From positions 47,481-111,480 of the forward strand of contig JBFLYH010000002.1 of the NCBI GenBank assembly GCA_040756875.1: a DNA stretch of 64,000 nucleotides, in the 5' to 3' direction. Of this stretch, positions 2,256-51,579 are shown in pieces (positions within the stretch are counted from its first letter, which is position 1; each line of letters starts with the position of its first letter). The position numbers and the translations under genes are program-made. This stretch comes from a candidate division FCPU426 bacterium. GTDB taxonomy: Bacteria > Oederibacteriota > JAAXVQ01 > JAUVAV01. Below the pieces are notes generated by a model. That model did no database searches. It was not told where the DNA came from and worked only from the letters and a program-made list of their open reading frames with translations.

Positions 2256-2340
2256 GGGACGATTCCTGGGTTCACGTCATTCAAAGAGGTCATGGGGGTG
2301 GAGTCTAGACCAGAAAGGTTGCCGCCTGATGCGGAAATGA

Positions 2341-4815: not shown

Positions 4816-4931
4816 GGAACCCTCCTCGGGCATCTTTTGCATGCCGCAACCGGCCCAGCATATACCAGGTTCAGCCGCCGCGGGTTATGGCGAGGATAAT
4901 TCCGGGTTAGATTATGGTTTGGAAGTTATGT

Positions 4932-4953
4932 CCGGCAGCGGCCGGGCTGCCGG
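4932..4953 (-). terminator. GC-rich hairpin just after the stop of the 2,611-aa gene
   Basis: CCGGCAGC-ggccgg-GCTGCCGG, a perfect 8-bp stem. There is no clear U-tract, so it may only be a stabilising hairpin. Confidence 0.35.
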
Positions 4954-4958
4954 CGGAT

Positions 4959-27900: not shown

Positions 27901-30900
27901 CGCCTTGATCCCCTCGCCAAACGAGGCGACCTGCACGGAAAAACCGTTTTGGCTGGCGAAATACTGCACGGGCCTGAACACCATTTCATAGGTCTGCTGC
28001 AGTTCTAGGGACGAGGCAAAGCGCTGGTACACGTCCGAATATTCCCCGGCCAGCCCGTCCGCCGGGATGCCGCGGGGCGTATACGCCTGGATAAAGTTGC
28101 CCCGCTGGTCAAAGTAGGCGAACCAGCCCGTGGCTTTGTTGCGCAGCATGAACGCCGGCAGGAAAAGGTCGGCTCCGATCACCTGGTTGGCGGGATTGAT
28201 GCTTTTGGCCAGGGCGGACAGTTCCGCCGTGGTCACAGGTTCAGGCCCGCCGATGCCGATGTCATTGATGACCGCGCCGGCCGGGCGCTCCAGCAAAGCC
28301 CGGATGCCCGGGAAACGAGCCAGGAAACCCCACACGGCCGAGAGCCGGCCGGGTTCGGTGATCAGGCGCACAGTGGCCGCCTCCCTGAATGCTTCCAGCT
28401 TGTCCTGGGCCAATTGCTGCAGGGCCGGGTCCTCCAGCCCCGGGGCCAGGACGTTCAGGGCGTGCCAGGCGGACATGACCACGCGCAGGTTCGTGTGCAG
28501 CAGGAGGTTGATCAGGGTATAGGCGTACGCCTCGCGCTCGCCGCGGCCGAGTTCCCCGCGGCGCCATTCGATCCCCACCACCCCGCGCACGATGTCCCCG
28601 GCTTCGGAACTGGCCAGCAGCGCCGGTATTTCCTCCGGGCGCGCGGCTTGGGCGCTGTCTCCGGCCACCACGGCGGTCAGTCCTTCGGGTTGGCGCAGGG
28701 AGGCGAGCGAATCCCTGGCGGGCGGCGAGCGTTCCGGCAGTCTGGCTTCGAGCTGGGGTCGCGCCACATCCGGTGCGGTTGTGACCAGCAGGGTCTCAGC
28801 CAGCAGCGCTGTAAAGGAAGCCCCCAGCTTCCCCCAAACGGTTTTTTTACTGTCAGGCGTCCCTGTTTTCGGCTCGAGGACGCCGGCTTCCGCGCCTTCC
28901 ATCCCCTTGCCTTCCAAAGCCAGCACCGGCCAGTTCAAATTAGGGAACGTCCGCGCCACCCAGTTGTTGAGGCTGTGGATCAAGGACGAGGCCAGGAACC
29001 CTGCCAGGCCGCCGGTCAGGGGCAGGTTGGCCTGGCTCAGGCCGACGCTGGCGCCGAAGTATGCCGCGCTCAAGACAAACGTCACGCCGGCCGCGGCTAG
29101 CCACTGCCGGGTGGTCCAGCCTTTGTCCCTATGCGCCACCAGGAACGCGCCGCCGAACACCGCCAGGCCGATCCCGGCGGCCAGGGGCGAGAGGTACCCC
29201 AGGTGGAACAGCAGCATGGGCGCCACGCGGAAGATCAGTTCCTCGCCGAACGGCCGCAGGCCCTTGGGCACCCAGGGCAGATGCCGCTCCCAGAAGGACA
29301 GTTCCAGGGTGGGCGTGCCGGGCCGCTGCACGGTGGGCGGCCGGGCCAGTTGCTGGGCCGCGATTTTTTCCTGCAAGGCTTGTTTGACCGCGGACACCAC
29401 GTTCAACAGCCGCGGTTCAGGTTCGTCGAGATGGAGATATCCTTTCAGCGCCTCGGCCGGCTGGAAGAGATAGGCCGGAACGGATTCAGGCCGCGTCTGC
29501 AGGTCCGAGGCCGGCACGACCACCGGCGCAATGGGCTGGTCGTCGAAGCGCAGCACCCGGCCGGCTGTGCCGTCCAGGTAGAACGTCAGGCCCGCGACCT
29601 GGGTTTCAACCACGGATTCGGATTCAAAGCGCAGGGGAAAGCTCAATTTTCGGGCGGTAAACCCCTCCTGCTTGAGCAGGTTGCTGATTTCCTGCGCACA
29701 GGGCCCGCACAGGTTGGGATAACGCACATCCGACGTGATTTCCCGCAGGGCTCCGGGAATGGCGGCCAGCACTTTTTTAAAGCGCGTCACTTCCTCCTGT
29801 TCGGCCGGGGACAGGGTCCGGCCGGTTTCAGCCAGCACCCGCTGCAGCATAGCGTCGAAGCGTTCGGGTGTCATGCCTTCATACTCCGGATACATGCGCT
29901 CCGGCCCGCTGAAGTGCGCCATCAGCATCTTGACCGCATACCCCAGGGTGAACCTTTCGCCTTCATGCACGATGCGCCCCAGGCTGTAGCCGGATGAAGT
30001 CCGGTCCATGCGCGCGAGCTCGTTCACGAGGAATTCGCGCGCCTGCGGGGTTTGCAGGTCCAGGCGAGCCAGGGCTTCAAAGCCCTTCTGCAGCACCGGC
30101 ACGTGGGGATACAGGCCGCGGAGCGGCGCTAAAATCTCTTGGATCCTGGCCATTTCCCTCTCCGCCAGCCCGGCCGGCGCCGGCGCGGCCACGGATTCAG
30201 CCTCCACCGCGTGCAGCTCAGGCAGCGCGACCTGCGCAACCTCCCGCCCCTCCTGCGCGGCCCGCAAGCCCAGGGTGATCTCGTAACCCTGCCAAGTGAG
30301 TTCCTCGGTTTCCTGGATCGTCAACCCCTGCGCCGGCAAATCGAAACGGCGGTTGCCCGCGATGATGTGGACGGACTGCGGCACGATCCGGCCGTTTTCT
30401 TTCCGGTAAACCGCCAGCTGGAGGTCATACGCCTTGCCCGGCCCCCGCCAGGCGGAGAGCGAATGGCCGGTGACCAGGTAGCCGCCCTCGTTCAGGTCCT
30501 GGCCCATGCGTTCGATGATTTCGGATTCCCGGCCCGCGTAAAAATACAGCGTGTTGAAACAAAGCTTGACCTCCGCCGGCGCCGTTTCTCCGAAGGAGGA
30601 CTGCTGGATCTCGAATCCGTATTTTTCCGCGTACGCGCGGTACGGGTCCGGCTGGAACGTAAAACCAGTTTGCGGCTTGGCGGGTTGCACGCGGAACTGC
30701 GCAAAAGCCGACCGGAAGCGCCTGGCCCAGGCCGTACTGCGCGTGGGATTGCCCTTGTCATCATAGAGGCCGAGCAAATTGCCGTCCTGTCCGAAGTAGG
30801 CGAACAAGCCGTTCGCGGCCTGGACCTGGTAGGCCGGGATTAATACGTCGCTGCCGACCAGGCGGGTTTGCGGATTCATCCGGCGCAACCGGGTGGCCAG

Positions 30901-33900
30901 TTCGGCCGTGGTCACGGGCACCGGCCCGCCCAGCCCGATGTCGTTCACCACCGCGCCCCCGCGCCTGAGCAGCAGGGCCCGGATGCCCGGATGGGTGAAA
31001 AGAAAATCATGCAGCCGGGTCAGCCGGCCCTCGAACGTGGAGACCGAGAGCAGGGCGAAACGGTCGTGCTTGGCCAGTTTTTTCCGGACGGCTTTTTGCT
31101 GGGCCGGTGAAAGCCGGGGCAAAACGGCGGTCAGGGTATGGTATGCGGCCATGGCCACGCGTCCGCGGTACGGTTCCATCAGCATCAGCAGGCGTTCGGT
31201 GTATTGCGCGAGATCGGCTTCGGCGATTTCATCGGCCCGGGCTTCGATGGCGCTGATGCCCCGGATCAGCTTGAGCACGCTCGAGGAATCCAGCAGCTCG
31301 CCGATCTGCGCGGCCGGCGCGGCCACATCGGGCCTGCGGGGCAGCACCGGGATGCGGCCCGGCTGGATTTCCATGTCCGTGCCCGCGAAGCCCGTGGCCC
31401 GCAGGTACTCGGGCAGCCCGGTTTCCAAATACCGGCCCAAGGCTTGCGTGAAGTCGCTGGCGCGGGTGAGCCGGGCGCTGACGCTGCCCCAGGCCTCCTC
31501 CAGGTAAGCCCGGCCTTCCACCGGCCCCAGGGCGTCCATCACTCCGTCGAAGATCGCGTTGTCCGGCCGTACACGGAAGGCGAAGAACACCGGGAACAAG
31601 GCGATCAAGGGCGCGAACAGGCCGCGCATCCGGCTGGTCACGGCCAGGCGCTTGGGCCCGTAGAAAGCCGAATAGTACATGACCTGCGAAAACGGCTGGC
31701 GCCGGAACGGCATGGGGAGCAGCCCGTCTCGGTCCACCAGCTTGGGCTCGGCTCCCGGTTCGTCGGGCAGGATCATGTTCTCCGGTTTGGGGTCGAACAG
31801 CACCCAATTGATGCCCGTGCGGTCGCGCAGATATTTCAGCACGGTCAGGTAGGAACGCACGGCCAGGCGCGGCACCGAACCGTTGACCGCCGGACTGGCC
31901 TCCTGCACCTGGTCCAGGGACCGGCCGTGGATGAACTCCTCGGCCATGATGCCCTGGTCCACGAAATGGAAGCTGGGCATGTTGGGATGGCCCTGCAGCC
32001 AGAGCTGGCGGATGCGCGGCTGGAGGAGCGCGACCCAGCCGACCAGGCGCCGCGGCACTTTGAAGGCCACGTCCACCTGCCGCTGTTCGCCGTTGGCGAA
32101 AGTGACCTGCGTTTCCACGCGGTACGCCCGTTTGAACGCCCCGCCGCCGGTCGGCGTGATCTTGACGTCAGGCCCGATCCGCTGCACGCGGGCGCCCGAG
32201 GGCAGGGCCAGGCGGATGGAGCGTTCGAGCAGCCGTTTGCCTTCGACGGCCCGCTGGATGCGTTTGCGGTCCGCGCCGGGAACATCGGCCGAAAAATCCA
32301 GCGCCAGTTCGCGGACCACGCCCGCGGGTTCAGCCGGCGCGGGCCGGGACTGCCAGCGGTAGAAGAGCAGCAGCGCCAGCACCATGACCGCGCCCAAGGC
32401 CGCGCTGCCGGCCACGGCCAGGGAAAAGAAGCCCAGGACATAGGCGGCCAGCGGCAAGGCCACGGCCAGAGTGAAGGCCCCGGCCGCCAGTAGCCACCGG
32501 CTCCAGGAAAGGGCGGGGTGCGTTTCCGCCGCCGCCGGGGCCGCGCCTTCGGCCCGCGAGCGGCGCGTGACGCGCAAACCCCGCGTCTGGCCGCCTTCCG
32601 CAGTCATAAATCCGTAGAGATGGCAATCGCCGGCCGTTGGCATGGAGACGCCGATCTGGTCCACGTTTACACCCTGCCAGGCGCTGGTGTCCACGCTGAT
32701 ACGGCCCACGAATCCCGCCCCCAGGTCAAAGGCGCTTTCGCCCACTTTCTGGCCTTTGCGGTAATACACCAGGGTGAGATGCGCGGTTTCCGCGCGGTGG
32801 TTCATCACGGCCAGGCGCAGGCTGTCCCCCAGCCGGCCCGGAATGATCCGGGCCTGCGCTTCCTGGGAACCGATGGCGTGCAACAGCAGGTTCGGGGCGC
32901 GGGCCGCGCGGGGAATGAGGCCCAGCCAGTAGGCCGGGTCGCCCCAACGCGGCGTTTTCTGCTCGTCCGCGGGCGACGCGGGCCGGGCCTGGTCGAAGAA
33001 ACTGGCGAAGAGGCGGACCGCGCCGGGATGGGCCGCGAGAATTCCCGCCGGTTCGCCCGGATACAGCTGGCCGAGCATGTCCACGAAAGCGGCGTAGGCC
33101 GAGTACAGCAGCCCGCGCCCCTGCAGGCTCCGCCCCAGGCCCTGGTGTTCGATCTGGACGCGGGTGCCGGCCGCGGATTCATACCGCGTGAATTCCCAGA
33201 TGAACAGCGCGCCGCCCACGCCCTGGTCGACCTCGTAGGCCCCCACGGTCTCAATGGCCTGGGCCAGGCTGAATTTGGGCGCGATCAGGATGCGGTGCTT
33301 GAACTTGTGGCGGTCGCGCGCCTGCTCCGGGATTTCCGGGAACTGCATGCTCAGGTAGACCAGGGCGTCGTCCGGCACGTCCGCCAGGTCGGTCCGCAGG
33401 GCTTCGATGATCCTGCGCTTCAACTCCACGTAGGGGATGTAGTTGTCCGTGTCGAATATTTCCTGCAGCCGGATGGTGAACGGCACCAGGGGCCGGCCCC
33501 GGTTGTTCTCCCGCACCATCACGGTTTCCAGCTCGCCCAGCCAATGCGGCGTGTCGAACAGCGTGAACCGGGCGCGGTCCTGCCGGGCCGAGAACAACCG
33601 TCCGAGGGCGATGACCAGGGCCGGCGCCAGCAGCGCCTGGGCCAGCAGGCGCGTCAGCCACCCGTTGACGAGCCGGTAGCGGACCGTGCCAGGCGTGAAG
33701 CGGTCGAGGGGCAGGCCCAGGGCCTTGAGGCCGCGCACGGCCCAGCGCCGGGCCAGGCCGTCGAACGCGAACATCACCCAGTTGCCGTCGCGCACCACCC
33801 GGCCGTGGTTGTCGTAGAACTGGCGGGTGGCGGGTACGTAGGTCCCCAGCGGCGCATTCAGCAGCCGGCTGGTGGCGTCCAGCTTCCGCCACTCCTCGAA

Positions 33901-36900
33901 GGCGAACACCACCTTGGAAAACTCCACCAGGAAGAAGGAGTACAGCGCCCCGAACACCAGCGGATTGGCCGTCAAAAAGCCGGCTGCCACGCTGAGCGCC
34001 AGCCACCAGGCCATGCGGCCCAGCAGCCCGCCGAGCGAGATCCGCTCGCGGGGCAGGCGCGTTTCTAGGCGGCGGTCGAACCAGGCGCTCGTGTCCGCGA
34101 ACTGCCGGCGGTAGGGCTGCTGGCGGGTCTGCACGCTGAAAGCCGAGAGCGCCACCGCCACCCCGCGCCCCGGATCCTCCAGGGCGGCGTTGAGCTGGTC
34201 AATGGTCAGCCCCCGCAGGCGGGAGATCGGCAGCGTAAACCGGCCCGCGCGCTGGCTGGGCAGTTCCACGACTGTTTCCTCCACGGTCCGGTTTTGCTGG
34301 ACAAAGGACAGGACCACGCGGACCGGCCGGTCGCTGCTTTGCTCGAACCGGAATTCCAGGCTGTCGCCCAGGTGAACGGCCTGCAGCCGCTGCATGGCCG
34401 GCGCTTCGGCCGTGGTCTCGGGGCCGAGTTCCACGGCCAGATCGACGCCCTCGTCCGTCAGCACCGCGCTGCGGCTGAGGTCGTCGTTGACCGCCAGTTC
34501 CACGGGCGCGGCGATCCACAGGGGGCTGACGGAGGTCACGGCCCGGTTCGGGTCCCGGCGCAGGTTCACCAGGCCTTTGGATTCCAGGTTGGCCAGCAGC
34601 ATCTCTTCCACCTGGTTCAAGCGCAGCACCACCAGGTCATACTGCCGTTGGGCGGCCAGCACGGCCTGGATGCGCTGGAGCAGGTTCTTCTCTCCCGGCG
34701 ACAGCGAGCCGTCCTCCCAGCCGGCCAGCAACGCGCTCCGCGCCGCTCGGGCGGCAACCGGCAGCCCGGCTGCCGCGGCCCGGCTGGGCAGCCAGCCGCG
34801 GCCCGGCGTATATAATAATGTATCCGAAGTCAGCAGGCCCGCCAGCTGCTGGCCGGACACCGGCTGGAACAACCGGAGTTGTTCCGGAACGACGATGCCC
34901 TGCTCCAGGAGCCCGGCCCTGAGCTGCCGCTCGTATTCCTCGGCCTGCGCCTGGGACAGTTCCCGCGGATGATACCAGACGCGCAATCCCTCCAGGGCCT
35001 CGCCGGTCATCAACTGGTTCGCGGCCAGCAGGCCCGTTTCCTCGGAAATGGCCGCGATCCCCGCCAGCCGCCCGTCCTTCCCCGCCTGTTCCACCAGCTG
35101 GTCTAATAGCGTCCGGACCGGCGCGCTGCCGTTGGGCTGGAAAGCGGCCAGCTGCGCCACGCGGTCGGGCGCAGCCGCGCCCAGCAGCTGCAGGCCGTTG
35201 AGGAGCAGATGGGCGTTGAGCCAGCTCGTTTCCCGGTCCAGCAATTGCAGCAATTCCACGGTGGCCGTTTCGAAAGCTTTCTTGGTCTGCCGGCGGCTGG
35301 CCAGGTAGGTCCAGAGCAACACGGCGTTTCCGCGGATCAGGGGATTGCGGTTCCACAGCAGGGGCCTGATCAGCGCCGGGTTCTGCTGGTTCAGCAGGCC
35401 GTGGAAGGCCTGGAAGCGCGTGCCCGGGTCCGCGTCGCCGAGCTGCCGGATCCAGTGCAAATAGGTGTCCGACGGCAGGGTGGGAATGCTCTCCCAGAAA
35501 ACCGTCAGCGGCCCGGCGACCCAGTCCAGGATGTGCGCCAGGCCTTCGGCCAGGATGCGGTTGACCAGCAGGTGCGCGAAAGTGCCGGGCCGGGTGCGCC
35601 GCAGGTCCAGGCCGAACCAGGACAGTAACTTTTGCGCCCAACGGTGGGCGTACACCTCGTGCGCCCAGACGATCCAGTGGGATTCGGGCACGCCGTTCAC
35701 CGAACGCATGATGGTGCCGGTGTTGGGATTGTAGGTGGCCACCGGTGTGGCCCAGCTCCGTCCGGCCGCGGGCAGCTGGCGCCATTGCGAGAAGGTGAAC
35801 AGCAGTTTCGCGGACGCCATGGTCAGATAGGGGATGGCGATGGCCAGCAGGCCGGGGAGCATCCAGGCCGCGGCCACCAGGCCCACGGCCAGCAGGAAGG
35901 ACATCAGCGCGCCGGGCAGATTCAGCGGCAGCAGGCGGCGGGCCGGATCATCGGCCGGGAGCCAGCGCTTGGCGCCGGCGCGGACATAGTCCGTTTCGTA
36001 AACCGTTTCGAAAACCCGCTTCATGCCCGCGCGCAGGTCGCGAAGGGCCGGTTCCCCTTCGCGCAGCAGTTTTTCGCCCAGCCGGAGATACGCGTCCTCC
36101 AGTTCCGCCGGCGTGTAGGTCCGGGTCTCGAAATCAGTCAGCTCGCCGGTCCGCTCCACTTCATCCAGGCCCAGCAGCAGCTTCACCGCCCCCAGGTCGC
36201 CGGAAATGGCCAGGTCGAAGATGGAAGTCAGGCTGTAGGACAGGCCGTGGACGATGAACTCCGCGCCGTATGCGCTGAACTCCTTCCAGGCGGCGAACCC
36301 CAGCGTGCCCCAGCCCGAGAGCAGTTCCAGGGACAGGTCCACCGCGTGCTGCACTTCGTGTTCTTCGGTCACCCGCGCCAGCAGCTCGTAGATTTCCTCT
36401 TCGCTCAAGCCTTCGAATTCCCAGGCGAACAGCCGGTTCGCCAGCCCGATCACCTCTTGATTGGGCGTTTTCAGGCGGTACACGCCCTGGGTGGGAGCCG
36501 CAGGATCCAGGCGGGAATAAACGTACTGCCGTTTTTGGGAGAGCGCGGCGTACACCACCCGGGCGTCCTTGCGGATCGCGTCCTCCAACATGGCCGGATG
36601 CTTGAAATCCTCCAGCAACAAGCCCGTGAAGGGCGGCAGCAGCGCGGTGTCGATCAGGCTTTTTAAACGCCAGAATTCCAGCGCGCGGCCGGCCAGCTGG
36701 CCCCGGTCCACGCGCTGGGTGATGCTGAACGGAAACAGCATGGGCGCGGCTTCCTCGCCCGCAACGTCGGGCTTGAGGCGCATTTCCAGCAGGTAATATC
36801 CGAATTGGGCCAGCAGCCGGTTGAGGCTGGCCCGGGCCTCCATCATCCGCGCTTCCTGCTCGGGCTGGGGATTTTCCAGGTACTCGAAGAGCACGTTGAA

Positions 36901-39900
36901 TAACCCCGGCGCCACGCGGTGCATCTGGCGCGAGAGCTCGAACACTTTCTGCTTGAGCCCGTCCGGGATGCGGGCCGGAGGCTCCTCGGTATGCCGCAAT
37001 ACGTCGGACAGTTGGGGCATGACTTCATGCATGAGCTGGTCCACGGCCGGGTGCTTGTATTTGGCGGGCTGCGGAGCCACGATCCGGCGGGCGCTGGTCT
37101 GCTGGGTCAGGGGCATGAGGCGGCGCGCGATCCACAGCCCGGCCACCAGCAGCACGGCCAGGGGAATGGCCGCGGACAGCGAGAGGGCCCCGGCCCAGAA
37201 CAGCAGGCCCAGTCCGGCCACCAGGGCAACGGACAACCCCACGGCCAGGCCCGTGCTCTGCAGGAAGAAATACAGCAGCGGCGAGCTGACGGTCAGGGTG
37301 ACCGGAGCCAGGGACAAACCGGCGTGTGCGACCAGCCAGTCGTGCTGATATCCGGTGACCGACAGCACCAGATCGCGGGCTTCCGCGTGGGTGAACCCCT
37401 GGTCCTCGAGCCATTCATGGAAGAGGATGGCCGCGGCCTCCCGGTCCTGGACCCGCGCCAGGGTGCGGGCCGCCAGAAAACATTTGCCGTCCAGGTGGAA
37501 GGCGCCCAGGCGCTCCAGGTCATCGTCCGTGGCTGCCGGCCGGGTCCGCGCCTGGCGCACCATGAGATGCAATGCGCCGGGATCCGCCACGGCCTTGGCC
37601 AGACGCCGGCCCTGCGGCCGCGATTGGTATTTGCGCTGGGCTGTTTGGACGAACCCCAGCCATTCCTCCGTGATCCGAGGGCCGCGCGCCCGATCGGCTT
37701 GCTGCAGCGGCAGGGCATGCAGGGCCTGGGTCGCGAACAACGCCCCCAGGAGCTGCGCCACTTTCCGCTGGGGCAACCGGGTGAGCACGAGCAGCGCCCG
37801 GCCGGGCCGGATCATCATGTCGAGCGTCGCGGCCGCGTTGCGCAGCGCGCGCTCCAAAATCACCTCGGCCGGTTCGCCCAGAAACGCGGACGACAGGGGC
37901 AGCGCGCGCCGGGCCTGCCGGGCCAGGTGCTCCAGCACGTCCAGAGGAGAACCCAGGCCGCCGGCCAGCCAGGTCCAGGCCGCGTCCTTGGGCGCTTCGC
38001 CGAAGTATTGGTCATAGGCCGGGTCTTCGGCCAGGGCCTCACGGAATTGGTCGGCGATCCGCATAAATTGTTCGTCCTCCGCGATCAGGCTCGCGTCCCG
38101 GACGCGCAGGAAAGCGGCGGCCATGGCAGGCGTAACTTCCGGCGTCTGCAAGTCCCGCAGCATCTGGACCGCGGCGTCACTTTCGCCGGCCGCGGCCAGG
38201 GCATAGGCTGCCACCAGCCGGCGCATGGCCGGGGTCAGCACGGACAGCGGCAGCCGGGCCTGGTCCTGTTCGCGGCGGGCATTGGCCGCGGCCAGGGTTT
38301 GCGCGAGGCGCTGCTTGCTTTCAGCCGGCAGGTTGGCCGCGGTCCACAGGCTGTAGGCGGGCATGGCGCTGGGCCCGCCGCTTTTAACGTAGATGACGAA
38401 GCTGAACAGCCGGCCGGCCCACTCCTGCTCGCCGAGGATGGGCGCCACATTCTGCACCGGGCCCAGGCTGATGATCCGGCCGCGCGCGTCCGCCAGGCCG
38501 TTTACCGCCACCTGGCCCTGGCCGAAATGCGTGCCTTCCAAAACCAGGCTGCGGAATCCTGGCGAATGAATCAGTTCCAGATTGCGGTTGCGTACGCTGT
38601 TGGCGTCCGGCTGGACGCCGGAGCGATCCCGGGGCGCGTAACGCAGCCCGCCGATCGCCTCCACCACGCCCAGGAGTTCAGCGCGCGTCATGGCCGCGAG
38701 CAGGGCCTCGGCGCGGAAACGCTCCAGTCCCAGGGCCTCAGCCACCTCGTCCGCGCCCAGGGTTTCGGCGCCTTGGTCAAACAAGGCCATGACCCGGGCC
38801 TGCTGCTGCTGGCGGTGGAAGAACAGGTTGGTGTGCAGGCTGTACGGCGAGCGGGGGCTGATGAATTCCTGCCACGTCTTTTCGGGCACGTCCGCCCAGG
38901 CTGCGCGGAAATCGCGCGCCGCCCGCTGCTTCTCCGCGGCCGTGGCGTGCTCGCGCCGCAGGAGCTCGCGTTCGATGTCGCGCCATTCCTCGGCCGTACG
39001 GATGCGCACCCGGCCTGCGTCCGCGTTTTGGCCGATGAAGGCGGCCCACACCTGGGACGCCGGCGCCTCACGGACCGTTCCCCAGACCGCCGCGGCCTCC
39101 GGGGCGGACGGGGCGGCCGAAGCCTGCTGCACGCCGGCCGCGGCCCAGGCGCCCCAGTCAAAGCCTGTTTGCGCCCCGCGGTCCGCGGCCCAAGCCGCGA
39201 AATCGCGCTGCGCGTAGTTTTCGAAAGCCAGGTCCCCGCCCCCGCGCCGGTAGGCCAGCCATTGGTCGTAAAACGCCCGTTTCGCAGGATCGGACAACAC
39301 CTCGTACGCTTCGTTGACCAGTTGGAACAGCCGTCCGGCCTCGGGATCGTCGGGATGCAAATCCGGATGCAGGGCGCGGGCCTGCTGCCTGAACGCGGAC
39401 TTGATCTCCTCGGCCGGCGCGTCGGACCCCTGCTCCAGGCGGCGGTAATAATCCTTGGCCTGCAATTCGGCCACGCGGTCCGGAACTTCGAGCCCGGCTG
39501 CCGCGATCAACGCTTCGTTCGTGAAACCCGTGACCTCGAGCACCGCTTCCACGGCCGCCTCATGCGAAAGCCCCAGGGTCTCCAGCGCCTCGTGCAAAAT
39601 CACGGCCGCAGCTTCCCGGGTCGTCAGGCGGTTGAATGCTTCCTGCGTGAGATAGACGCCGCCCAGCAGGTGGAACGCGCCGACCCGCGCCAGGTCCGCG
39701 TCCGTATCCACGCCGGCCGGCGCCTGGTTGCGCTCCAGCAGGTTGATCGAAAGGGTCCGTGCGTTCAGCCGCCGGTTTTGCACCGGCGCCGTACGCACGC
39801 TGAACAGGCGCTCCGCGTGGGCGAGGTAAGCGGCCAGTTGCTCCCGCACCGGCGCGGCGCGGCGGGATTCCGCGTCCTCGAGGGAACGGCTGGCCAGCGC

Positions 39901-42900
39901 CTGCCGGGTCCACAGCGCCCGTACGACATCCGCAATCTTCTCGGGCGCGGCCTGGGCCAGGGCGAGCAAGGCTTGCCCGGGCTGCAGCAGCCAGCCGGCG
40001 GCCGCAGCCGCGTTGCGCAGGGCGCGGTCCAAAACCGCCTCACCCGCAACACCGGTCAAAACGCCGGCGAGTACGCCCTCGCCCTGTCGTCCGAGTCCGG
40101 CTGTCCGCGAAACGGCAGTACGAAGGCCGGATCCAGGCAGGCGCAAGCTTGCCAAGGCTTGCAGCACCGCTTCGCCGGCCAGGCGCAGCAGCGCTCGGAT
40201 CTGCGTTCCATAAGCATAGAGTTCGCCGGCCAGGCGGCCCGAAGGCGCGCGGCCTTGTTTTTCCCTGGCCAGGTCCTGCGTCCGGTGCGCCTGTTCATGG
40301 ATCAAGATCAGGCGCTGCAGCAGCGCGGGCAGATACGAAATGCGCGCCAGGTCGGCCACCAGTTTGCCTGCGATTTCTTTGGGCGAAATGCTGCGGTCAG
40401 CATAGGCGGCAATCTCGCCGGGGCGCATTTCCTTTGACAGGCCGCGCGCATCCACGACATCCGCTGCCAGCCATTCCGGAATCAGGCGCTGCCGTTGCGC
40501 CTCAGTCAGGGCGGCCTCGCCGGCCAGGCCGCGCGTACGCGCGATCATAACGCCCATCACTGCAAACGGCACTCCGACGAGCGGCGTCAGCACGCTGCCC
40601 ACGAGCCCGAAAACCAGGGCCGCCGTTCCGAATCCAAGCCCCAGGGAGAGCAAACCGGTCAAACCGCCAAAGCCCAACCCCAACGCGACGGCCGAGAGGC
40701 CCGTGCCCAGGAAGGAAATGAAGCTGGTGATGAACGCGCCCAGCGCAGTGAGATAGCGCGGCGCCGTGCTGACCACGATTTCCCTGGGCGCCTGCTTGGC
40801 AACCTCGGCATCCAGGGCCGCCTGCAAGGCGGGCAGACCGGTCTGGCTGACCAGTTTCCGGACTTTTGCGTATTCCGTTTCATTTAGAAAATGGAACGAG
40901 AGGTAGTCTCCTATGATTTGTCGGCCCATTTCAGGGTTAAGGGTTTTAAGCAGCTCAACCAACGACTGTTCGGCGTACAGGCTGCTTTTCCCGGAATTGA
41001 CCGCGCTGTACAGCAGCTTAAACCCCAATTCAGCCAGGGTCTGATACTCCCCCTGGGTTTGAAGATACTGATACACGTGGTGCCGCACAACTTCCTGACC
41101 AACCGCATCCAGAACAAGGTTCTGCAGCCGCCCGGCGTATGAGCTCATATAGACGTGGTTATTTTTGGACGCCTTGAAAACAGCGGCCCGGTTGGCGGGC
41201 AGGAGCATTTCTTGATAGAAGCGCTCGTCGCCGAAGTATTGCTTCATTGCGCCTATATAATCGAACCCACCCCAATAGGTCAGCTGTTGCAGCACAGCGG
41301 CCATCTCCGAAAAGCTTTTCCTGCCGTGGGTCGCGAACATTTTTTTCAGTCGATCGGAGGCGCCCGTCTGCAGGCCGCCGTAGGAACCCTCCCTTTGCTG
41401 CGTCAGCAGCCAACGGTCAAGCAGAGCCGCGGTCTGTTCAACCGCGCCCGGGGTTTTTAACAGAGCGGCAAGCCGTTGCTCCTGAGCGGTTACCTCAGAG
41501 GAGCTGAAAGGTTTGACTTCCTGCCTCCGTTGCATAATGTCGGCCGTGGTTTCGGCTTTCTGAGCCGCCAGCGAATGGGCCTGCACCCAGGCTTGGGCTT
41601 TCGCAAAAGCGTCCGCCCCCTGAAAACGCTCGGGTTCTCCCATGGCGCGGTAGGTGGCCAGCTGTACCTGCCATTCAGGGCCGCTTTCACCCTGAACCAC
41701 GGCCAGCAGATGAATCGGCGGATTTCTCGGGTTGGAAAGCAACCGGAAAAACTGGTTTTGCAGCATGACCAGGGCCGCTTGGGGATCCTGTCTGGCCACT
41801 TCCAAGGAGAACCCCAGCTGGAGGCCTAATAGCGACTCATGCTTCGCTTCCAGCGCCTTCGTAAATCCTTGATAGAATCCATGCGCCGCCCGCAGCCAGT
41901 CAACCATGCGTCCGGTTTCCGCCGGGGTGGTTCCTGTCAGCCAGGCAAACGCCTCGGGATGGGTTTTCGCCGCATCGGCCAACACGGCATAATGCTTCAC
42001 GGCGATCAAAGCGGCGCGGCGGTCCGGCCGCCAATCCGTCTCGCCGCTTACACGTTCTAAATAGTCCCAATCCACGGATCCCAGATCCAGGCCTTGCCCG
42101 GAAATCCGTTCTTGATTGCGGGCCTGCACCCACGCTTTGAAAGCCGCGTCGCTGAGCGTGCCGTCCGCCGCCAGGGAAACCGGCGTTTTGCGGCCGTTGA
42201 CAAAAATATAATCGCCCGTCTTGTCCCGCACCACGAACAAGGCGGCCATGAATTTCAATTTCTGCTGCAGGCCTTCATTCAAGCCGTCCCAGAGGACGTT
42301 CCCTCGTGAAATGACGTGCACAAATGCCGTATAAGTCTCGGCAAAGCTCTCTTTCAGGGGGTCGCCCACGCGCAAGGCGTTGACCTTGGCGTCAAAAGCA
42401 TAGCGGGAGAAAAAATACCGGCGTTCGGAAAAGCGTTTATGCAGTTGCAGCCACTCTTCGGTCAAGCGGGCCGAAAGCAGGCGGTGGATAAAATGCGCCA
42501 ATTCATGGGTGGGGGTTTCGCTCAGCACGCTCACATTTTCAAAATATTTTTGCGGATCCGCCTCCGGGTTCAGGAAAGATCCTCTGCTGCCGGCCTGGCC
42601 TTGGCCGAGATCAATGGTCTGTCCGTACTGCCAGCCGGCGATATTTTCCCCCGCCGAATCCGGGAGCGCGCCGATGACCTGTAGGCCGTCAAGATGATTG
42701 CTTGGCAGCCCCAGGTAGGTTTCGTAAATTTGCCTGAGCCCATCCTGGGAATACCCGCCAATGAAACTGATCCAATTGCCGCGGATGTGCAACAACCAAT
42801 GTTTATGACCGGTGCCCATGAAATCTTCGTCCGCCAAGAAGCAATTCGTGGCCGGGCGCTGGTTTTGCAGCACGGTTTGAATGCGCTGTTTGTACAGGGT

Positions 42901-45900
42901 TGCGTAAACCGCGCCGGCATCGGCGTCGTAGTTTTCAAATTCAGAAAGGAGCTCGTTGGCCATCCACTGCAGCTGTTGGTTGTCGCCCGCGGTTGCGCCG
43001 CCCAGCCGGTCCACCATTGTGTTCAAAAAAGCGGGAAAATCCCGCAGCTGTTCCTCGCCGATCAGCAGCAGGCCTGCGCGTTCCTTTGGCACGCCGCGGA
43101 AATCCAGCATATTCCCTTGGCCTTCCGCGGAAGACAGCACACGGACAAATTTAAAGTACCGGGCCAAACGGTCGGGCAAAAGTTCAAACATCAGTTCCAG
43201 CTTGGTCTGGATGTCCGCGTCCTGAGCGGCAGCCCCGGCCACCATAATTTTGTATTTATCGAACATACGCTGTTGAAAAGCGTTCATTCTCAGGCTTTGC
43301 GCAAGCTCGACGTTGAGCGGGACGTTTTCAGCCAGCGTCTTTTGCATCAGCTCCCGGATGATTTCGCTACTCGTGGCGCCTTGTCCGTTGGGCGTCATCC
43401 AGCGGAGAATCATTTGCATTTCGTTTTGATTCAAGTTCTGCTGCTCCGCCCGATAGCGCAGGGCCGTACCAACGCCTAAACCGTCGCGCACCGAAACAAC
43501 GATCTTGGGGGCGCCCGCCAAAGCAATCCAAACGCCCAGGGCCAGCAGCAATACCATTCGTACGCCCGGGTTGGCCAGCACCGGTTTGAACACCCGGCTG
43601 AGCACAGCCAGCGGCCGCTCCAGGACAATCCCCGCCATGGCCAAAGTGTCCAGCAGATGCGCCAGGATTTCGCCTGCCCATACGTTCCAGAGGCGATAGG
43701 CTCTGGAACCGGCCGGATGACGGTTGAGATCGACGCCCACAAGGTATAAAAGATTTTGCGCCCAGCGGTGGGCAAGCTGTTCATGCGCCCGGATGATGGG
43801 ATTCGTTTCTTTCAGCCCTGCGCTCTGCAAGGACTGCACCCTGCCGGTGGCAGGATTATAGGTGGCAACCGGCGTGAAGAAAGAGCGTTTCTCCTTGGGG
43901 AGCCGGCCCCTGATCCGCACTACCAGCGCCAGCTTGGCAACGGCCATGAGGAAAAACGGCAGGCTGAGAGCCAAAGCCCAGGGATGGGCGGCGGCAAAAA
44001 TGACCAGAGCGGCATTCACCCCCAAAGCCGCCAGCGCACCCGGCAGATTCAGCGGCTGCAGGGTTTCGTCCGTGCCTTCCACCACCAGGCCCTGCTCCGT
44101 GTACGCCACGCGCAAGCCCACGGCGCCGAACACGGCCACCAGGCCCTGGGTGCCGCGCACCTCGGAATAATTCGTTTCCAGCACGTTGACCAGCCCGCTT
44201 AGGCGGTTGTGGTTCTCGTCCTGCCGTTCCTGCAGACGGTCGGCCGGTATCCGCTCCGCGGGAAGGCCGGCTTTGCCGGCCGTGCCTTCCACGTAGGGTT
44301 CGGTCAGGGCTTCGGCCTTGACCGCGGTCACCATCTTTTTCAGGTCGTCGGAGCGGTTCTTGGGCATCACCAGCACGACCTTGTCCTGCAGCACCACCAC
44401 GTAATCCTCCAGGTTGCGCACGGTCACCGGCTCGCCGTCCGAAAACACCACCGTGCGTTTGGCGCCCTCCAAAACGATCCGGTCCGTGCCCGGGCCGATG
44501 CGCTGATTGCCGTCCGCGTCCGCTTTCTCGGTCATGGCGTCCCAGGCGCCCTCGTCGTACCAGGGAAAATCGCCAACCACGGCCGTGCTGCCGAATTCGT
44601 GTTCGGGCTTGATCTGCTCGTTGATCACGAACGCCACGGCCACGGCGCCGGCTTTGGGGATCTGGTCGTACTCGCGCTTCAGCACCTCGGCCTCGGCCGG
44701 CGTGTCCACGGCCGTGGCGATGCGCTCCATGCGCTCCCACAGCTCGGGGGTGTACTTCTGGAAGGATTCGATGCCCGTGCGGTTGTGCACGGCGAACATG
44801 CCCGAGCTCCACAGGAACTCGCCGCTTTTCACGAACTGCTCGGCCACGTCGCGTTTGGGCTTTTCGCGGAAGCCTTGGATCTCGCGGATCAGGGTGCCGA
44901 GTTTGGTCTTCGACCCCATTTGGATGTAGCCGTAGCCCGTGGAGGGGAACGTGGGCTGAATGCCGATCATGGCCCAGTCCTTGCGGTTCTGGGCGGCTTT
45001 GATCGCGGACAGGATCGCGGCCTGCAGCCGCTCTTCCTGCAAGATGACGTGGTCCGAAGTGAGAAACACGGCCGTGAAGTCGTCGCCAAAGCGCTTCTTC
45101 CCCACCACCAGGCTCAGGGCCGTGGCCGGCGCGGTGTCCTTGTTCGACGGCTGGGCGATGATGTTGGCGCGGGGAAAATCCGCGGGCACGGAATCCATGA
45201 CCTGCTGCACGAAATTTCCGCGGGCCGCAATCAGGATCCGGTCCTTGGGAATGCCCATGCGGACCACGCGGTCCATGGTCTTTTCCAGCATGGTCTTGCC
45301 GTCGCGCGAGAAGGAGCGGAACTGTTTGGGATTGATGCCCGTGGACACGGGCCACAGCCGGGTGCCGCCGCCGCCGGCCATGATCACCACGTAGGCCCGG
45401 GAGACATCCGGTTCCTGCACGGCCTGGCGGTGGTAAACGCGCTCGCCGCTGGAGAGCTTTTTCACTTCCACGCCGGCGGTCTCGGGCGACTGCTCGGCCT
45501 CGGCCGAGGCGAGGAACTCCAGCACCCGCTGCGCGGTGCGTTCGGTCCAGTTCAGACGCCGCGCCAGGTTCGCCGGAGTCAGGGGCTCGCCGGCCAGGAT
45601 GAGCTCGCGGGCCTGGACGGCGCGGCTCAGAAAGCGCTGGTAGATCAGGTGCAGCGCGAACAGAGGCGTCAGGATCAGGATGACGGCGAACGCGCCCAGG
45701 GCCACGGTGCCCAGGGAGAGATGGCCCAGCACGGCCAGGGGCGCGAGCAGGGAGAGGACCATGGTGGTGAAGGTGATGAAGAGCATGCTCTGCGGCCGGC
45801 TCAGGTCGCGCACCCAGGCGCCCCAGCGGGGATGGTTGCGCAGTCTCATCACCCACTCCAGGGGCTGGGGCAGATCCATGCGCAGCATGAGCGTGCGCAG

Positions 45901-48900
45901 CACGAAAGGCAGGGTCAGCACGAACCCGCCGGCCAGGGTGATGCTGAGCGTGTAATAAAACACGCCCCACAGGGACATGGTGACCAGGCCCACGGTCAGC
46001 AGATAGGCCCCGGCCAGCAGGTAGAGGGCGATTTCCCAGGTCGTGAAGCGCTTGAATTCGCGGCGCACGGCCTGCCAGAAACCGGGCACAACCGGCGGTG
46101 CGAAGGATTTGATATGGATGCCGTCCGCATCCTGCTTGATCTCCAGGTGGTCGGCGTCCACTAGCACGGTCAGGCCCTGCCGGTTCACCACCTGCGAGCG
46201 GCTGGATTGGCCGAAGCGCCGGACCACGGCCTGCCCCTGCGTGCCGGCCTCGCGGGCCGACACGGCGCTGCGGGCGTAAGGAGCGGTCTCGGGATCCGCG
46301 GTCAGCAGGCCCAGCAGGCGCGGCAGGTCCTCGGCCCGCTCTTTGGGCATGACCAGCAGGATTTGGTTGGCCGCGACCACCACGTACCCCTGAAGGTTCT
46401 CCACCGAAACCGGAAGGCTGTCCGAGTACACCACGGTGTTCGTCGTGTTTTGCGTGCGGATCCTGAAATACGCCGGGCCCACGCGCTGCATGCCGCCCTT
46501 TTCCGTGGGCTGGGTCAGCAGGTTCCACTGGTTTTCCTCGTCCCAGGGAAACTCGGCGGGCACGGTCATCAGCCGCAATTCGTCCTGGTCGCCGATGGCT
46601 TCCAGCACCGCTTCGTCCACGGACAGGGGCCGGACGGCCTCCTCGGCGTACAGTTCGCGCAGGCGCTGGGGAGCGATCCCGTCCGCGCCCGTGGCCTCGG
46701 CCAGGCGGGCGGTTTCCGGCGCATAGGACGCGAAGGCCGCGCGGCCCACGCCCACGTCCACCACGAAGATGCCGGCGTTGACGGCCAGGTTTTCGCGGGC
46801 CAGCATTTCCTCCAGCACTTCGCGGTCCGGTTTCTCGACAAACCCTTCGGCCTTGAAAATGTTGGGGGCGAGCTTGCTCGGCTCGCTCTGCAGGAAATAG
46901 CCGTACTTGGTGAGGGGCGTCTTGACCGGCGCGGCGACGGTCATCCAATGCTTCCCGTTTTGCGCGCCCTTGACCGCCGTGCGCAGGGCGGTTTGGAAAT
47001 GCTCTTCCTGCTCGGGGATCACCTGGTCCGTGGGCAGGAAGATCGCGGTGGCGTCCGCGCCGAAGCGGCGTTCCAGCCAGGCCAGGGCCCTGGCCATGGC
47101 CAGGCCCGTGCCCCGGGGCGCGGGCTCCAGGATGAGGTTTTGGTCGGCCGGAAATCCGGCCGGCAGCGCGGAGATGATGGCCGCGCGGTAGGCTTCGGGC
47201 GCGACCACGACCACGCGGTCCCAACTGATGCCCAGGCGCACCACGCGGGCGATGGTCTTGGCCAAGAGCGTCTCGCCGTCCCGGGAGAACGTCTGCAGCA
47301 CCTCGGGCAGGTCCGCCTGGCTGGCGGGCCACAGCCCCGGCGCGCCGCGGCCGCCGATGGGGATCACCACGCAGGCCCGCGACAGATCGGTTTCCTTGAC
47401 TTGCAGAGGTTTAAGCACGCGCTCGCGCGAGGCGTTCCAGGCGTCGGTAACGCCGGCCAGCCGGCCGCGCTCCGATTCCACGGAACTCAGGTAATCCATG
47501 ATGTCTTCCGCGATTTCCGGCGCGCAGCCCAGGCGCTGCTGAATCTGGCCGCGCGTCAGTTCCTCGCCGGCCAGGACCCAGGCGTGAACCTGCCTGAGCT
47601 GGCGTTCGCGCCGGCGCTGGGCCGGTGACCACAGGGCTGCGGGCAGGGCCGCGAAGTCCAGCACGTGCGCTAAAATCTCGCTCACGATCACCACCGCGGC
47701 CAGATGCTGCCAGGTGCCGGGCCGGTAATCGCGCACTTTCAGGCCCAGGATCGACAGGCCGGCCAGGACCCAACGGTGCGCATATTGCTCATGCGCGCGC
47801 ACCAATAAGCCGGCGTTGACCAGCACCCGGCCGTTCGCGTCCTTGATCTTACCCGAACGCGGATCGAAAGTGGCCACGGGCGTCCACCAGGTGCGGCGGG
47901 CCTTGGGCAACTGGCGCCATGCCCGGAAAGTATGCACGGCTTTAGGCAGGGCCAGGGCCAGGTACGGCGCGGCCAGCACCAGTAGCAGCGGATGCGCCAA
48001 GCCCAGGGCGAACATGGGCAGGGCCAGGGCCAGGAGGTTGATGACCACGCCGGCCAGGTTCAAGGGTTGCAGGGCGCGCAGCGATTCGTACGCCAGGCCG
48101 AGTTCCAGCGGACGGGCGAGCAGGCGGACCACGCTTTTGCGCAGCAGGAACCCAAACGACGGCGTGCGCGCCTGTTCCTCCAGCCACGGATCGAGCCGCA
48201 ACGCGGCCTCGGGGGCGGCCGGGGGCCGGGGCAGCCGCTCGCGGCCCAGCCACAAAGCCGTGCTGCTGCTCGCCACCAGCGCGGAAATGGGGCTGGCGAG
48301 CAGCGCGGTGCGCACGAGATCGCCGCTGATCAGGACTTTCGGCCTGGCCAGCAGCCGGTTCTTGATCTGGTCCGCGGCCTCGGTTTCCATCATGGCGATG
48401 GTGTAGGCATCGTTGAGGTTCAAGGTGGCCAGGGGGGTCCCGGGGATCCGGCGGTCCCGCCGGCGGATGATCATGGTAAACCCGGTGTTGCGGATGGGCA
48501 GGTAGTAGGTGTCCGCCGCGGGATTGGCCAGCGCTCCGCTCCAGTCGATTTCGATCCGGGCGTTGTTCCGGGCATAGCGGCTCACCACGCCGGCATACGC
48601 TTCTTCCACGTCCGTCAGCTCGTGAGCGCCCCGCAGAATCAGGTTGGCGACCAATCCCTGCTTGAGGGTAAGGTCCAGGAGCTTGAGGAACACGCGCACG
48701 CGTTCGGGCTGGGCGTCCTCGGCCAACGGTGTCATTTCACCCTGGGGGAAGGCCGTGGGCAGGGCCAGGATTTCCTGATTCTGGGCCAGCAGCTTTTCCA
48801 CCGGCGTGCGGCGTTCGCGCAGCAGCGCGAAATAAGGGTTCACGCTGTCCCACTTGCTCAGCCGGGGCTTGAGGCTCAGGTAGGAGACGCCGCGTTTGCG

Positions 48901-50184: not shown

Positions 50185-50253
50185 ATTAATATGGATAATC
50201 CCCGAAAAAAGAGATGGATAATTACTATGACTATAACATATTTTAACCACCAA

Positions 50254-50426
50254 TTCTAATGCTGTTCCGTTTTTTTTAAATAAAAATAAGGTTAAAGTTG
50301 GTATTGTTCTATTATAGAACGTTTTTTATTATTGATTTATATAAGGAAAACTGATTTTTCCCAAAATATCTGCCAATGTGATAAACAAGGAGAAAATTTC
50401 CTAATGATATGACTAAATCAGCGGGA
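50254..50426 (-). promoter_or_regulatory. AT-rich promoter region of giant A with a -10 box inside a palindrome
   Basis: Strongly AT-rich intergenic stretch. Minus-strand TATAAT at 50316-50311 lies within GTTCTA-tta-TAGAAC (50306-50320). No canonical -35 was found. Confidence 0.5.
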
Positions 50427-51533
50427 TCAAACTTTGAGGAACCAGCGTTTCAGCATTTCCAGCCACTCGTGCATGCGTTGGGGATCAAGGCCAGCGCCTT
50501 TCAGGCTCTCGGCCATGATTTCGGCATTTTGCAGGGTTTCGAACAAACCCCGGTCAGGAATGACGAGCATGCCGCTGGTTTCGACATACCCGGCTTTCAC
50601 TTTGTTGTTGATGATCGCCTCGTTGCCGCGGGGGAAAACCGCCTCCACCCATTCGCCCGCGGAATTCCGCCACGCCAGGCTGTTGTAGATCAGGCCCGAC
50701 ATCCGGCACGAGTGCAACACGACCTGCTGCTGCCGCAGCAGAGCCGACAGGCTGGTCGCGCGGAGCAGGATTCCCGGCCAGGGATAAACAGCGTCCAGCA
50801 CTTCCAGGCGCACGCCGTGGCCGTCGGTCCAGGCGTCGGCCGCGGCCAGTCCGCCGGCCGCTTCCAGGCGCACCAGGGGCAGGAACCGTTTGGGCACGGC
50901 CTGGGTGTGGAAATGATCCACCGAAGCGCCGGCCCCGCGGTCGTTGTAGCCCACGGCATACTCCAGGGGGAACAGGCTGCCGCACAGTTCCTGCGTGTCC
51001 GCCAGATGGCTGGCGGTCGCGACCTGGGGATAATGCTGCCGGGTGTCCGGGTCCGCGTCCAGGGAGGCGATGATGAAATGGTCGGGTACAATGGGCGCCG
51101 GCTGCACCAGCACCCCGTAATGGCGGCCGCTGGCCGCGGTCCAAACCAGGTAGTGCTCGTTTTCAGGAAAACTCTCCCAGGCCAGAAAATCCGGTTTGGC
51201 TCCGGCCGCCGGGGCCGGGCGCTGGCCTTCGGCGTGGCGGTTGGCCGGATCGCGGAAGGGATTGTACAGGGCCACGAGCGGCGACGGCGGGAAGGATTTG
51301 ACCACGATGCTCGCGTCCCAGGGATCGTATTTCACGAAATGCGCGGCCCGGGAGTAGCGCAGCAGGGCCTCCAGCCAGACGGCCAGGGGCAGTCCGGAAT
51401 CCGCAACGGACTGCAGGCGCAGATCCAGGGCGCGGTGTTCTCGGATCAGGGATTCCGCGAGCTTGAGATGGTCCGGATCAGCCGGAGGGAAGGTGGCGCG
51501 GGAGGCGAACTCGGAAAGGGTCTGTGTCGTCAT
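50427..51533 (-). CDS. HIT-superfamily HxHxQ nucleotide phosphorylase (DUF4922 / GDP-hexose or Ap4A phosphorylase-like)
   Basis: VQPAPIVPDHFII, GYNDRGAGASVDHFHTQ, VFPR, ETSGMLV. Start set at ATG 51533 to avoid overlap with truA. Confidence 0.7.
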   Translation of the reverse strand: MTTQTLSEFASRATFPPADPDHLKLAESLIREHRALDLRLQSVADSGLPLAVWLEALLRYSRAAHFVKYDPWDASIVVKSFPPSPLVALYNPFRDPANRHAEGQRPAPAAGAKPDFLAWESFPENEHYLVWTAASGRHYGVLVQPAPIVPDHFIIASLDADPDTRQHYPQVATASHLADTQELCGSLFPLEYAVGYNDRGAGASVDHFHTQAVPKRFLPLVRLEAAGGLAAADAWTDGHGVRLEVLDAVYPWPGILLRATSLSALLRQQQVVLHSCRMSGLIYNSLAWRNSAGEWVEAVFPRGNEAIINNKVKAGYVETSGMLVIPDRGLFETLQNAEIMAESLKGAGLDPQRMHEWLEMLKRWFLKV

Positions 51534-51579
51534 GGATCCATTATCCGCAGAGGAGGCGGCAGGGGCAAGAAAAAACGCT

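Follow-up and report, generated by a model that had tools for sequence, protein, structure and literature searches.

A transmembrane-hairpin module with a near-invariant HExxxH motif and a probable metal site recurs in giant proteins of one bacterial order

The window analyzed here, 64,000 nucleotides of a candidate division FCPU426 bacterium (GenBank assembly GCA_040756875.1, contig JBFLYH010000002.1, positions 47,481 to 111,480), contains a single open reading frame (ORF) for a protein of 12,426 amino acids (aa) in which a module built on a transmembrane (TM) hairpin occurs four times. This module is a previously undescribed domain of about 150-190 residues, new to the databases, and we found it only in giant proteins of one order. 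Two motifs on neighboring helices, HExxxH and E-x-x-A-H-x-x-D, supply six nearly invariant residues that probably bind a metal. Our leading explanation, which we hold tentatively, is that the module is a membrane-adjacent new domain with one metal site, possibly a zincin-like hydrolase acting in cis or at the membrane surface.

None of the four copies is a gene of its own; all are domains within the one giant protein. The ORF that spans them is read from a TTG codon, and between stop codons its frame measures 12,450 codons; translation may in fact begin at codon 24, the first in-frame ATG. The ORF and the copies lie as follows:

12973..50253, minus strand: giant ORF (12,426 aa), with many TM hairpins along its length and few Pfam domains
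47554..48132, minus strand: module copy 1, motif intact (aa 708-900), delimited by the hmmsearch envelope and alignment
43546..44121, minus strand: module copy 2, motif intact (aa 2045-2236), which opens the low-GC block 1 described below
35425..36000, minus strand: module copy 3, motif intact (aa 4752-4943), which opens block 2
33523..34101, minus strand: module copy 4, degenerate in its motifs (aa 5385-5577), with the remainder of the module kept

When the giant protein was compared with itself by BLAST in 300-aa chunks, four paralogous modules were recovered, at about aa 717-871, 2053-2206, 4772-4915, and 5403-5532. Copy 1 is 47% identical to copy 3 over 147 aa (expectation value, E, 9.6e-32) and 37% identical to copy 2 over 156 aa (E 6e-22); copies 2 and 3 share 45% identity over 141 aa (E 2.7e-27), and copy 4 matches each of the other three at 28-31% identity (E 7e-10 to 5e-12). 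The original prediction, made from the DNA letters, had described three HExxxH copies and a fourth without the motif. Its coordinates are exact in the ORF translation, and the self-comparison links all four copies. Given the composition of the whole protein, 0.24 occurrences of HExxxH and 0.11 of PL.L[PAL]G would be expected by chance; three of each are observed, all at homologous positions in the modules, and a chance origin of the HExxxH and PLNL(P/A)G repeats is excluded. The conserved elements of each copy are these:

48049..48066, minus strand: PLNLAG of copy 1, predicted to form a beta-strand (model residues 15-18) that leads into TM helix 1
44038..44055, minus strand: PLNLPG of copy 2, from the translation
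35911..35928, minus strand: PLNLPG of copy 3, from the translation
34027..34041, minus strand: ISLGG, the eroded counterpart in copy 4, from the translation
47926..48048, minus strand: TM hairpin of copy 1 (aa 736-776), with five Lys or Arg in the 20 residues after TM helix 2
47776..47793, minus strand: HEQYAH, first motif of copy 1 (aa 821-826), on model helix 102-121
43768..43785, minus strand: HEQLAH, first motif of copy 2 (aa 2157-2162)
35644..35661, minus strand: HEVYAH, first motif of copy 3 (aa 4865-4870)
33748..33768, minus strand: AFDGLAR, degenerate first motif of copy 4, the counterpart of AHExxAH
47656..47679, minus strand: EILAHVLD, second motif of copy 1 (E859, H863, D866), on model helices 134-150 and 152-161
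43648..43671, minus strand: EILAHLLD, second motif of copy 2, from the translation
35524..35547, minus strand: EGLAHILD, second motif of copy 3, from the translation
33628..33651, minus strand: RLLAQALL, degenerate second motif of copy 4, the counterpart of ExLAHxLD

In copy 4, all six conserved residues (H, E, H, E, H, and D) have been replaced, by F, D, R, R, Q, and L, respectively. The erosion of PLNL(P/A)G in this same copy, also noticed in the original prediction, is borne out by its ISLGG sequence.

Conservation was assessed in 39 non-redundant modules extracted from profile-search matches. We excluded the self-copies (L001-L004), matches covering fewer than 100 profile positions, and 8 duplicates; P0013 and P0015, which yielded no full module, were omitted as well. 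Two of the 39 modules lack the second half, so that counts for the second motif refer to 37. The consensus, A-H-[E/D]-x-x-[A/S]-H followed by E-x-x-A-H-x-x-D, is almost invariant. The first His of the first motif is present in 38 of the 39 modules and the second in 37; the residue after the first His is acidic in every module (Glu in 24, Asp in 15), and the residue before the second His is always small (Ala in 32, Ser in 7). The second His is followed by Arg and by a Trp that is found in 31/39. In the second motif, whose residue pattern is E-x-[LMF]-[AT]-H-x-[LW]-D, Glu is conserved in 34/37, Ala in 33/37, His in 34/37, and Asp in 36/37. Five of the six motif residues rank among the 13 most conserved columns of the alignment. 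Altogether, the six residues are conserved at 87-100% although the sequences are only 23-30% identical, and the pattern is also kept in a divergent subfamily at about 24% identity, of which the module of a second giant frame is an example.

Other parts of the module are conserved as well. A Lys after TM helix 2 is found in 36/39 modules, and the element P-V-[AG]-x-Y-[DN]-P retains its Tyr and its final Pro in 36/39 each. The strand motif Q-P-L-x-L-x-G is looser: Q is present in 32/39, P in 27/39, the first L in 38/39, the second L in 34/39, and G in 31/39, with the position between the two Leu residues occupied by N in 15 and S in 16 of the 39 and the position before the Gly by P in 19 and A in 7. 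The two metal-motif elements are 38 residues apart in the short form of the module, and a subset of modules carries an insert of about 11 residues. In one homolog, L031, three motif residues are altered (the second His to Arg, the Glu to Asp, and a His to Tyr) and the strand motif is eroded too; the strand motif is eroded in both motif-damaged modules, copy 4 and L031. The original prediction had named a lack of conservation among homologs as grounds for abandoning it, and the motif residues proved near-invariant. It had also described the motif as HExxxH with a distal Glu. The HExxxH part stands, while the distal element is not a lone Glu and comprises Glu, His, and Asp in the arrangement E-x-x-x-H-x-x-D.

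Four observations argue that the six residues form a metal site: they are near-invariant among sequences that are so dissimilar; a small residue precedes each His, permitting tight helix packing; all six were lost jointly in copy 4; and two His at the same i/i+5 spacing, with a small fifth residue, bind zinc in M49 peptidases, as described in passages of PMC5667867. We therefore consider metal binding by the module to be probable, on the strength of the sequences and of the model described below. The three Ala-His pairs and three carboxylates would make up a single metal site, most likely for Zn2+.

The same residues might instead form a network of hydrogen bonds and salt bridges, or a surface for lipid headgroups or a partner at the membrane interface, with no metal at all. 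Consistent with this idea, the replacements in copy 4 could form a salt bridge instead, and the module shows no homology to any metal-binding family. However, three His preceded by small residues, together with three carboxylates on two facing helices, conserved to this degree at such low identity, are typical of metal sites, and the interchange of Glu and Asp beside an invariant His is the pattern of ligands and second-shell residues. We regard a metal-free module as unlikely. Another possibility is that two His on facing, partly hydrophobic helices bind a cofactor such as heme. The His residues do sit on semi-hydrophobic helices beside the membrane (the second-motif helix reaches a hydropathy of 2.0 on a 19-residue Kyte-Doolittle window), and the Arg and Trp after the second His would suit such a role. 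Yet the three conserved carboxylates beside the His favor a cation, and our searches returned no similarity to cytochrome b-type folds, making cofactor binding very improbable.

An AlphaFold model of copy 1, built with a 31-sequence alignment, has a mean pLDDT of 88.2 and a predicted TM-score (pTM) of 0.74. It starts with a helix and then a short strand that corresponds to the PLNL motif (residues 15-18), followed by the TM hairpin with its two long helices (19-39 and 41-66) and a beta-hairpin (78-83 and 88-91). The first motif, at 107-112, lies 5-10 residues into the helix spanning 102-121; the second helix, 134-150, holds Glu 145 and His 149, and it is followed by further helices, of which the first begins with Asp 152. 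Modeled by itself, the soluble part adopts the same fold (pLDDT 87.5). Because the two motif helices are predicted to be antiparallel, the start of the first lies opposite the end of the second, and so the six motif residues should face each other across the helix pair; this is read from the secondary-structure layout and not from coordinates. The TM helices are joined by a turn of 1-3 residues, and the 20 positions that follow TM helix 2 include 2-6 Lys or Arg. The positive-inside rule would place both flanks of the hairpin, and hence the motif, in the cytoplasm. In the arrangement we propose, each copy would run from a beta-strand through a tight two-helix TM hairpin and a beta-hairpin to the two antiparallel motif helices, with the TM hairpin holding the metal site at the cytoplasmic face of the membrane. 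A complex prediction with two module copies and Zn scored 0.00 and carries no weight either way.

Searches of sequence databases yielded no known family: none of the four copies had a Pfam match at E<=10; among 31 aligned members searched against NCBIfam, the best E was 0.023 and no family was matched by more than one member; the module family profile had no match at E<=10 among PDB sequences; and in the ESM Atlas the best score, 0.82, did not lead to a known family. In a profile search of 1.84 billion representative proteins, 15 proteins matched at E<=0.001, and 14 of these are 1,154-6,130 aa long. The fifteenth, of 139 aa, covers the hairpin part only, and no free-standing form of the module was found in this set. 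A homolog search among proteins of 414-2,000 aa gave one match. The survey that the original prediction had proposed as a check places the module in 12 of 15 genomes of the window's order, the genome under study included, and in none of 84 other genomes of the phylum. The open frames that bear it are about 2,100-13,700 codons long, often with two to four modules each. In the literature on HEXXXH proteins, as covered by titles, abstract openings, and passages, a membrane-hairpin HExxxH module in giant proteins is not described.

The genome also encodes a fifth, divergent module (WHEGFSH ... EFLTHTLD), outside the window at G000:C3:397670-398173. It lies in a second giant frame of 6,158 codons, and the subfamily to which it belongs is also present in other genomes of the order.

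The number of modules differs within the genus. A same-genus ortholog from another species, 10,744 aa long, is collinear with the giant protein, mostly at 63-86% identity and lower in a few chunks, and holds copy 1 only. Two blocks are absent from it:

40039..44028, minus strand: block 1 (aa about 2076-3405), containing copy 2
32506..35928, minus strand: block 2 (aa about 4776-5916), containing copies 3 and 4

Copies 2-4 lie in these blocks, and the comparison indicates that modules are carried along in blocks subject to gain or loss inside the genus. The first border of block 1 immediately follows the PLNLPGAL of copy 2, a motif of which a worn remnant persists in the ortholog. For block 2, the PLNLPG of copy 3 marks the start, and the end lies directly ahead of another TM hairpin, so that membrane topology is preserved. 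The composition of block 1 (GC 0.592; GC at third codon positions, GC3, 0.694) departs from that of the other parts of the ORF (GC 0.65-0.69, GC3 0.83-0.89), with sharp edges at the same borders, which suggests that this block was acquired recently and in frame. A search of the order for the source of block 1 turned up no close candidate: outside this genome, the top match reached 32% identity. The composition of block 2 is like that of the remainder of the ORF.

What the module does is a more tentative matter than metal binding. Hydrolase activity of some kind is a reasonable possibility, whereas peptidase activity in particular is doubtful. In the module, TM helices are followed by the metal-motif helix and then by a second helix with a further putative ligand, an order of elements that resembles membrane zincins of M48 (HtpX/Ste24 type) and small gluzincins such as M78 (ImmA/IrrE/PprI). 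Our preferred explanation is a zincin-like hydrolase that would act at the membrane surface or, in cis, on the giant protein itself, with copy 4 as a copy that would no longer bind metal and would be retained as an anchor or partner.

Several results weigh against this explanation. First, the predicted fold is a confident one without known relatives. For neither model did Foldseek return a PDB match at E<=0.001. A VIA-align comparison with 48,161 representative chains gave Z scores of at most 5.7 for the whole model, with rows mostly restricted to the hairpin (residues 1-73), and at most 5.2 for the soluble part, for which no chain reached Z>=8. Among the top 50 solved chains, PprI (8sln_A) alone covers the strands and both helices, and this match is at noise level (rank 35, Z 3.8, root-mean-square deviation 3.5, 61 aligned residues). 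A fold search of BFVD gave a best E of 0.34; its noise-level matches include two phage proteins, one named "Metallopeptidase domain protein" (E 1.0) and the other SprT-like (E 1.3, TM-score 0.40). Second, hhalign comparisons with family alignments built from genomes of the same phylum assigned the module a probability of 0.6% and 0.4% against M48, 0.2% against M78, and 0.6% against the third domain of TldD/PmbA (PmbA_TldD_3rd, PF19289), the last over 24 motif-centered columns only. In the positive control, M48 was linked to M78 at 55% (E 1.2e-4). Third, the position of the catalytic Glu of zincins is taken by Asp in 15/39 modules, and P0001 has three Asp-type modules and no Glu-type module. 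This exchange fits a metal ligand or a second-shell role better than a general base, or else a single-turnover enzyme. Fourth, the absence of copies 2-4 from the same-genus ortholog means that these copies are dispensable for the core of the protein. Finally, PLNLPG is conserved at alternating positions and predicted to be a strand, a point to which we return below.

Membership of a known zincin family is therefore not supported, given hhalign probabilities of 0.2-0.6% for M48, M78, and TldD/PmbA against 55% in the control and the lack of an invariant Glu as general base. M48 and M78 carry HExxH where the module has HExxxH, and the structural match is at noise level. The compact, new, membrane-anchored mini-zincin of the original prediction thus survives in part: the predicted order of elements is compatible with it, but there is no detectable link to zincins and the Glu is Asp in many modules.

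The original prediction had also read HExxxH as the zinc site of M49, the family of DPP III. M49 is defined by HEXXGH and EEXR(K)AE(D) 22-55 residues downstream in the passages of PMC5667867, and there is a partial likeness: a six-residue H-E-x-x-small-H of the same spacing on a helix is followed 22-55 residues on by a second acidic helix, and the module's distance of 38 residues in the short form falls within this range. The module differs in having no Gly in the hexapeptide, in the Asp that replaces Glu in 15/39, and in its architecture, a soluble part of about 100 residues on a TM hairpin, whereas M49 proteins are described as two-domain, cytosolic enzymes. Its second motif is E-x-x-A-H-x-x-D and not EEXR(K)AE(D), and Pfam gave no match at E<=10 for the four copies. 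The Peptidase_M49 profile (PF03571) had no hit at E<=1e-10 in any of 99 genomes of the phylum, the window's own included, while a Bacteroides control was positive, and no DPP III chain appeared in the fold-search lists. M49 membership is not supported, in view of the Pfam result and the second motif, and the idea that the module is a divergent true member of the family is close to refuted. What holds of the original claim is that HExxxH is a zinc motif of M49 type; no sequence, profile, or fold search links the module to M49 itself.

Nor is HExxxH a mark of M49 alone. It also serves as the metal motif in TldD, which is partnered by TldE, a paralog that lacks the catalytic residues (passage of PMC10885120), and it is found in TMCP tubulin carboxypeptidases (PMC10499314); zincin-like peptidases embedded in large polyvalent proteins include one set with HEXXXH (passage of Iyer et al. 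2017, PMC5512222). TldD and TldE further recall the module in that an active subunit is paired with a catalytically dead paralog, much as intact copies stand beside copy 4; they are, however, soluble and of another size and fold class. The polyvalent-protein zincins are, by description, likewise small domains inside very large multidomain proteins, and the insert of about 11 residues in a subset of modules falls at a matching place, but they are parts of soluble proteins from phages and conjugative elements, while the module is chromosomally encoded by its host and embedded in the membrane. The giant proteins of Omnitrophota and others (West-Roberts et al. 2023, 10.1101/2023.11.21.568195) are very long bacterial proteins with many TM segments and embedded peptidase domains, by which they are proposed to be cut. 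Those peptidases are of the C39 and S8 types and occur with extracellular adhesion and degradation domains; here we find cytoplasmic enzyme domains and an orphan module. That text makes no mention of DnaJ, nucleotidyl, metalloprotease, hairpin, or polyprotein.

The interchange of Glu and Asp at the "catalytic" position also favors a module in which the metal serves as a structural clasp, locking the two helices onto the TM hairpin in a pure anchor or spacer without catalysis. The giant protein is rich in other TM-hairpin repeats of anchor-like look, copy 4 retains the remaining fold, and modules come and go with the blocks inside one genus, all of which would suit such a role. On the other hand, the module persists in copy 4 with every ligand gone, so that metal is not needed to maintain it, and the conservation of nearly every position of the helix (A-H-E/D-x-Y-A-H-x-W), as well as the Y..P of the beta-hairpin, exceeds what a clasp would need. 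We consider a purely structural clasp a credible but rather unlikely alternative to the zincin-like hydrolase.

The strand motif bears on a further alternative, in which each HExxxH module is a self-processing mini-protease that cuts the giant protein at or near its own PLNL(P/A)G to leave membrane-tethered pieces. PLNLPG occurs only at module starts, where it was seen three times against the 0.11 expected, and it is eroded in both modules with damaged metal motifs. The strand and the beta-hairpin ahead of the motif helix are predicted to share one small sheet, and zincins bind their substrates as an added strand. A protease that turns over once would, moreover, tolerate Asp in place of Glu. 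Against this, the strand is conserved at alternating positions while its P and N vary, as expected for packing and not for recognition; modules with an intact metal motif and a diverged strand exist, such as those with QALSLRN and YALSGRG; neither the giant protein nor its 2,611-aa neighbor has the site outside the modules; and zincin homology was not detected. Self-processing of this kind is improbable in our judgment. Since PLNL(P/A)G is a predicted strand with alternating conservation and no further copies in the protein, it looks like a structural part of the fold rather than a recognition site, which weakens the suggestion in the original prediction that it is recognized or self-cleaved. 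Cleavage at the PLNLPG strand is accordingly a long shot. Equally slim are the chances that the module represents the smallest known membrane-tethered metallopeptidase family, with about 100 soluble residues and HExxxH, cutting the giant protein in cis at PLNLPG.

If it did, bacterial proteins of 2,000-13,700 residues would be membrane "polyproteins" processed by built-in proteases, and the dead copies would serve as joints that cannot be cut. It is an open question by what means bacteria synthesize, fold, and employ proteins longer than 10,000 residues, and whether these work whole or cut. The module is a compact, conserved, and confidently modeled domain that recurs only in giants, with a natural dead copy beside intact ones, and at about 100-180 residues it offers a small, expressible handle on metal binding and self-processing. 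A catalytic module would constitute a new family with the rare HExxxH spacing; a module that is only an anchor would show how giant arrays of cytoplasmic enzymes are pinned to the membrane. Either way, the gain and loss of blocks between two species of one genus shows how giant genes grow.

Along the rest of the giant protein, a hydrophobicity scan finds TM pairs spread over its entire length. Pfam recognizes two NTP_transferase domains (one with a ManC beta-helix), DnaJ, CheR-like S-adenosylmethionine (SAM)-binding stretches, a Phosphorylase stretch (of glycogen-phosphorylase type), and HD. Related giant proteins mostly have no Pfam match, and those that do contain cytoplasmic enzyme types such as protein kinase and cytidylate kinase; the recognizable domains of the giant protein and its relatives are all of cytoplasmic enzyme types.

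The gene sits in a chromosomal, housekeeping neighborhood and not in a mobile element. Directly downstream of it is the 2,611-aa ORF (4959-12794, minus strand), with a sub-threshold LysM match as its only Pfam signal, followed by a GT4 glycosyltransferase fusion (2341-4842) and a Ppx/GppA gene (687-2255); a gene for a DUF4922 protein (50427-51659) lies upstream. Other neighbors are ordinary biosynthetic genes, including truA, asd, leuB, leuA, and ilvC. The neighbors and the NTP-transferase- and phosphorylase-like parts of the giant protein hint at sugar-nucleotide or polymer metabolism. The 120 bases 5' of the TTG start (50254-50373) are very AT-rich, in a genome of 65% GC.

The giant protein contains further repeats. 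A second TM repeat module, unrelated to the first, occurs three times, at 25474-26106, 23764-24381, and 16489-17007 (aa 8050-8260, 8625-8830, and 11083-11255), and keeps the motifs GRWPWL, VESG, AWHL.H, and NPTG.LFAGL. A third kind of repeat is found twice (aa 9860-10040 and 11857-12036). There is also a fourfold repeat of about 300 residues (aa 6311-6653, 7203-7554, 7722-8056, and 8301-8618), one copy of which gives the CheR-like SAM-binding match. Within it, a stretch of 135 residues is duplicated at 28903-29307 and 27103-27507 (aa 6983-7117 and 7583-7717) with 88% aa identity, rising to 97% in the first 68 residues; identity this high points to a recent internal duplication.

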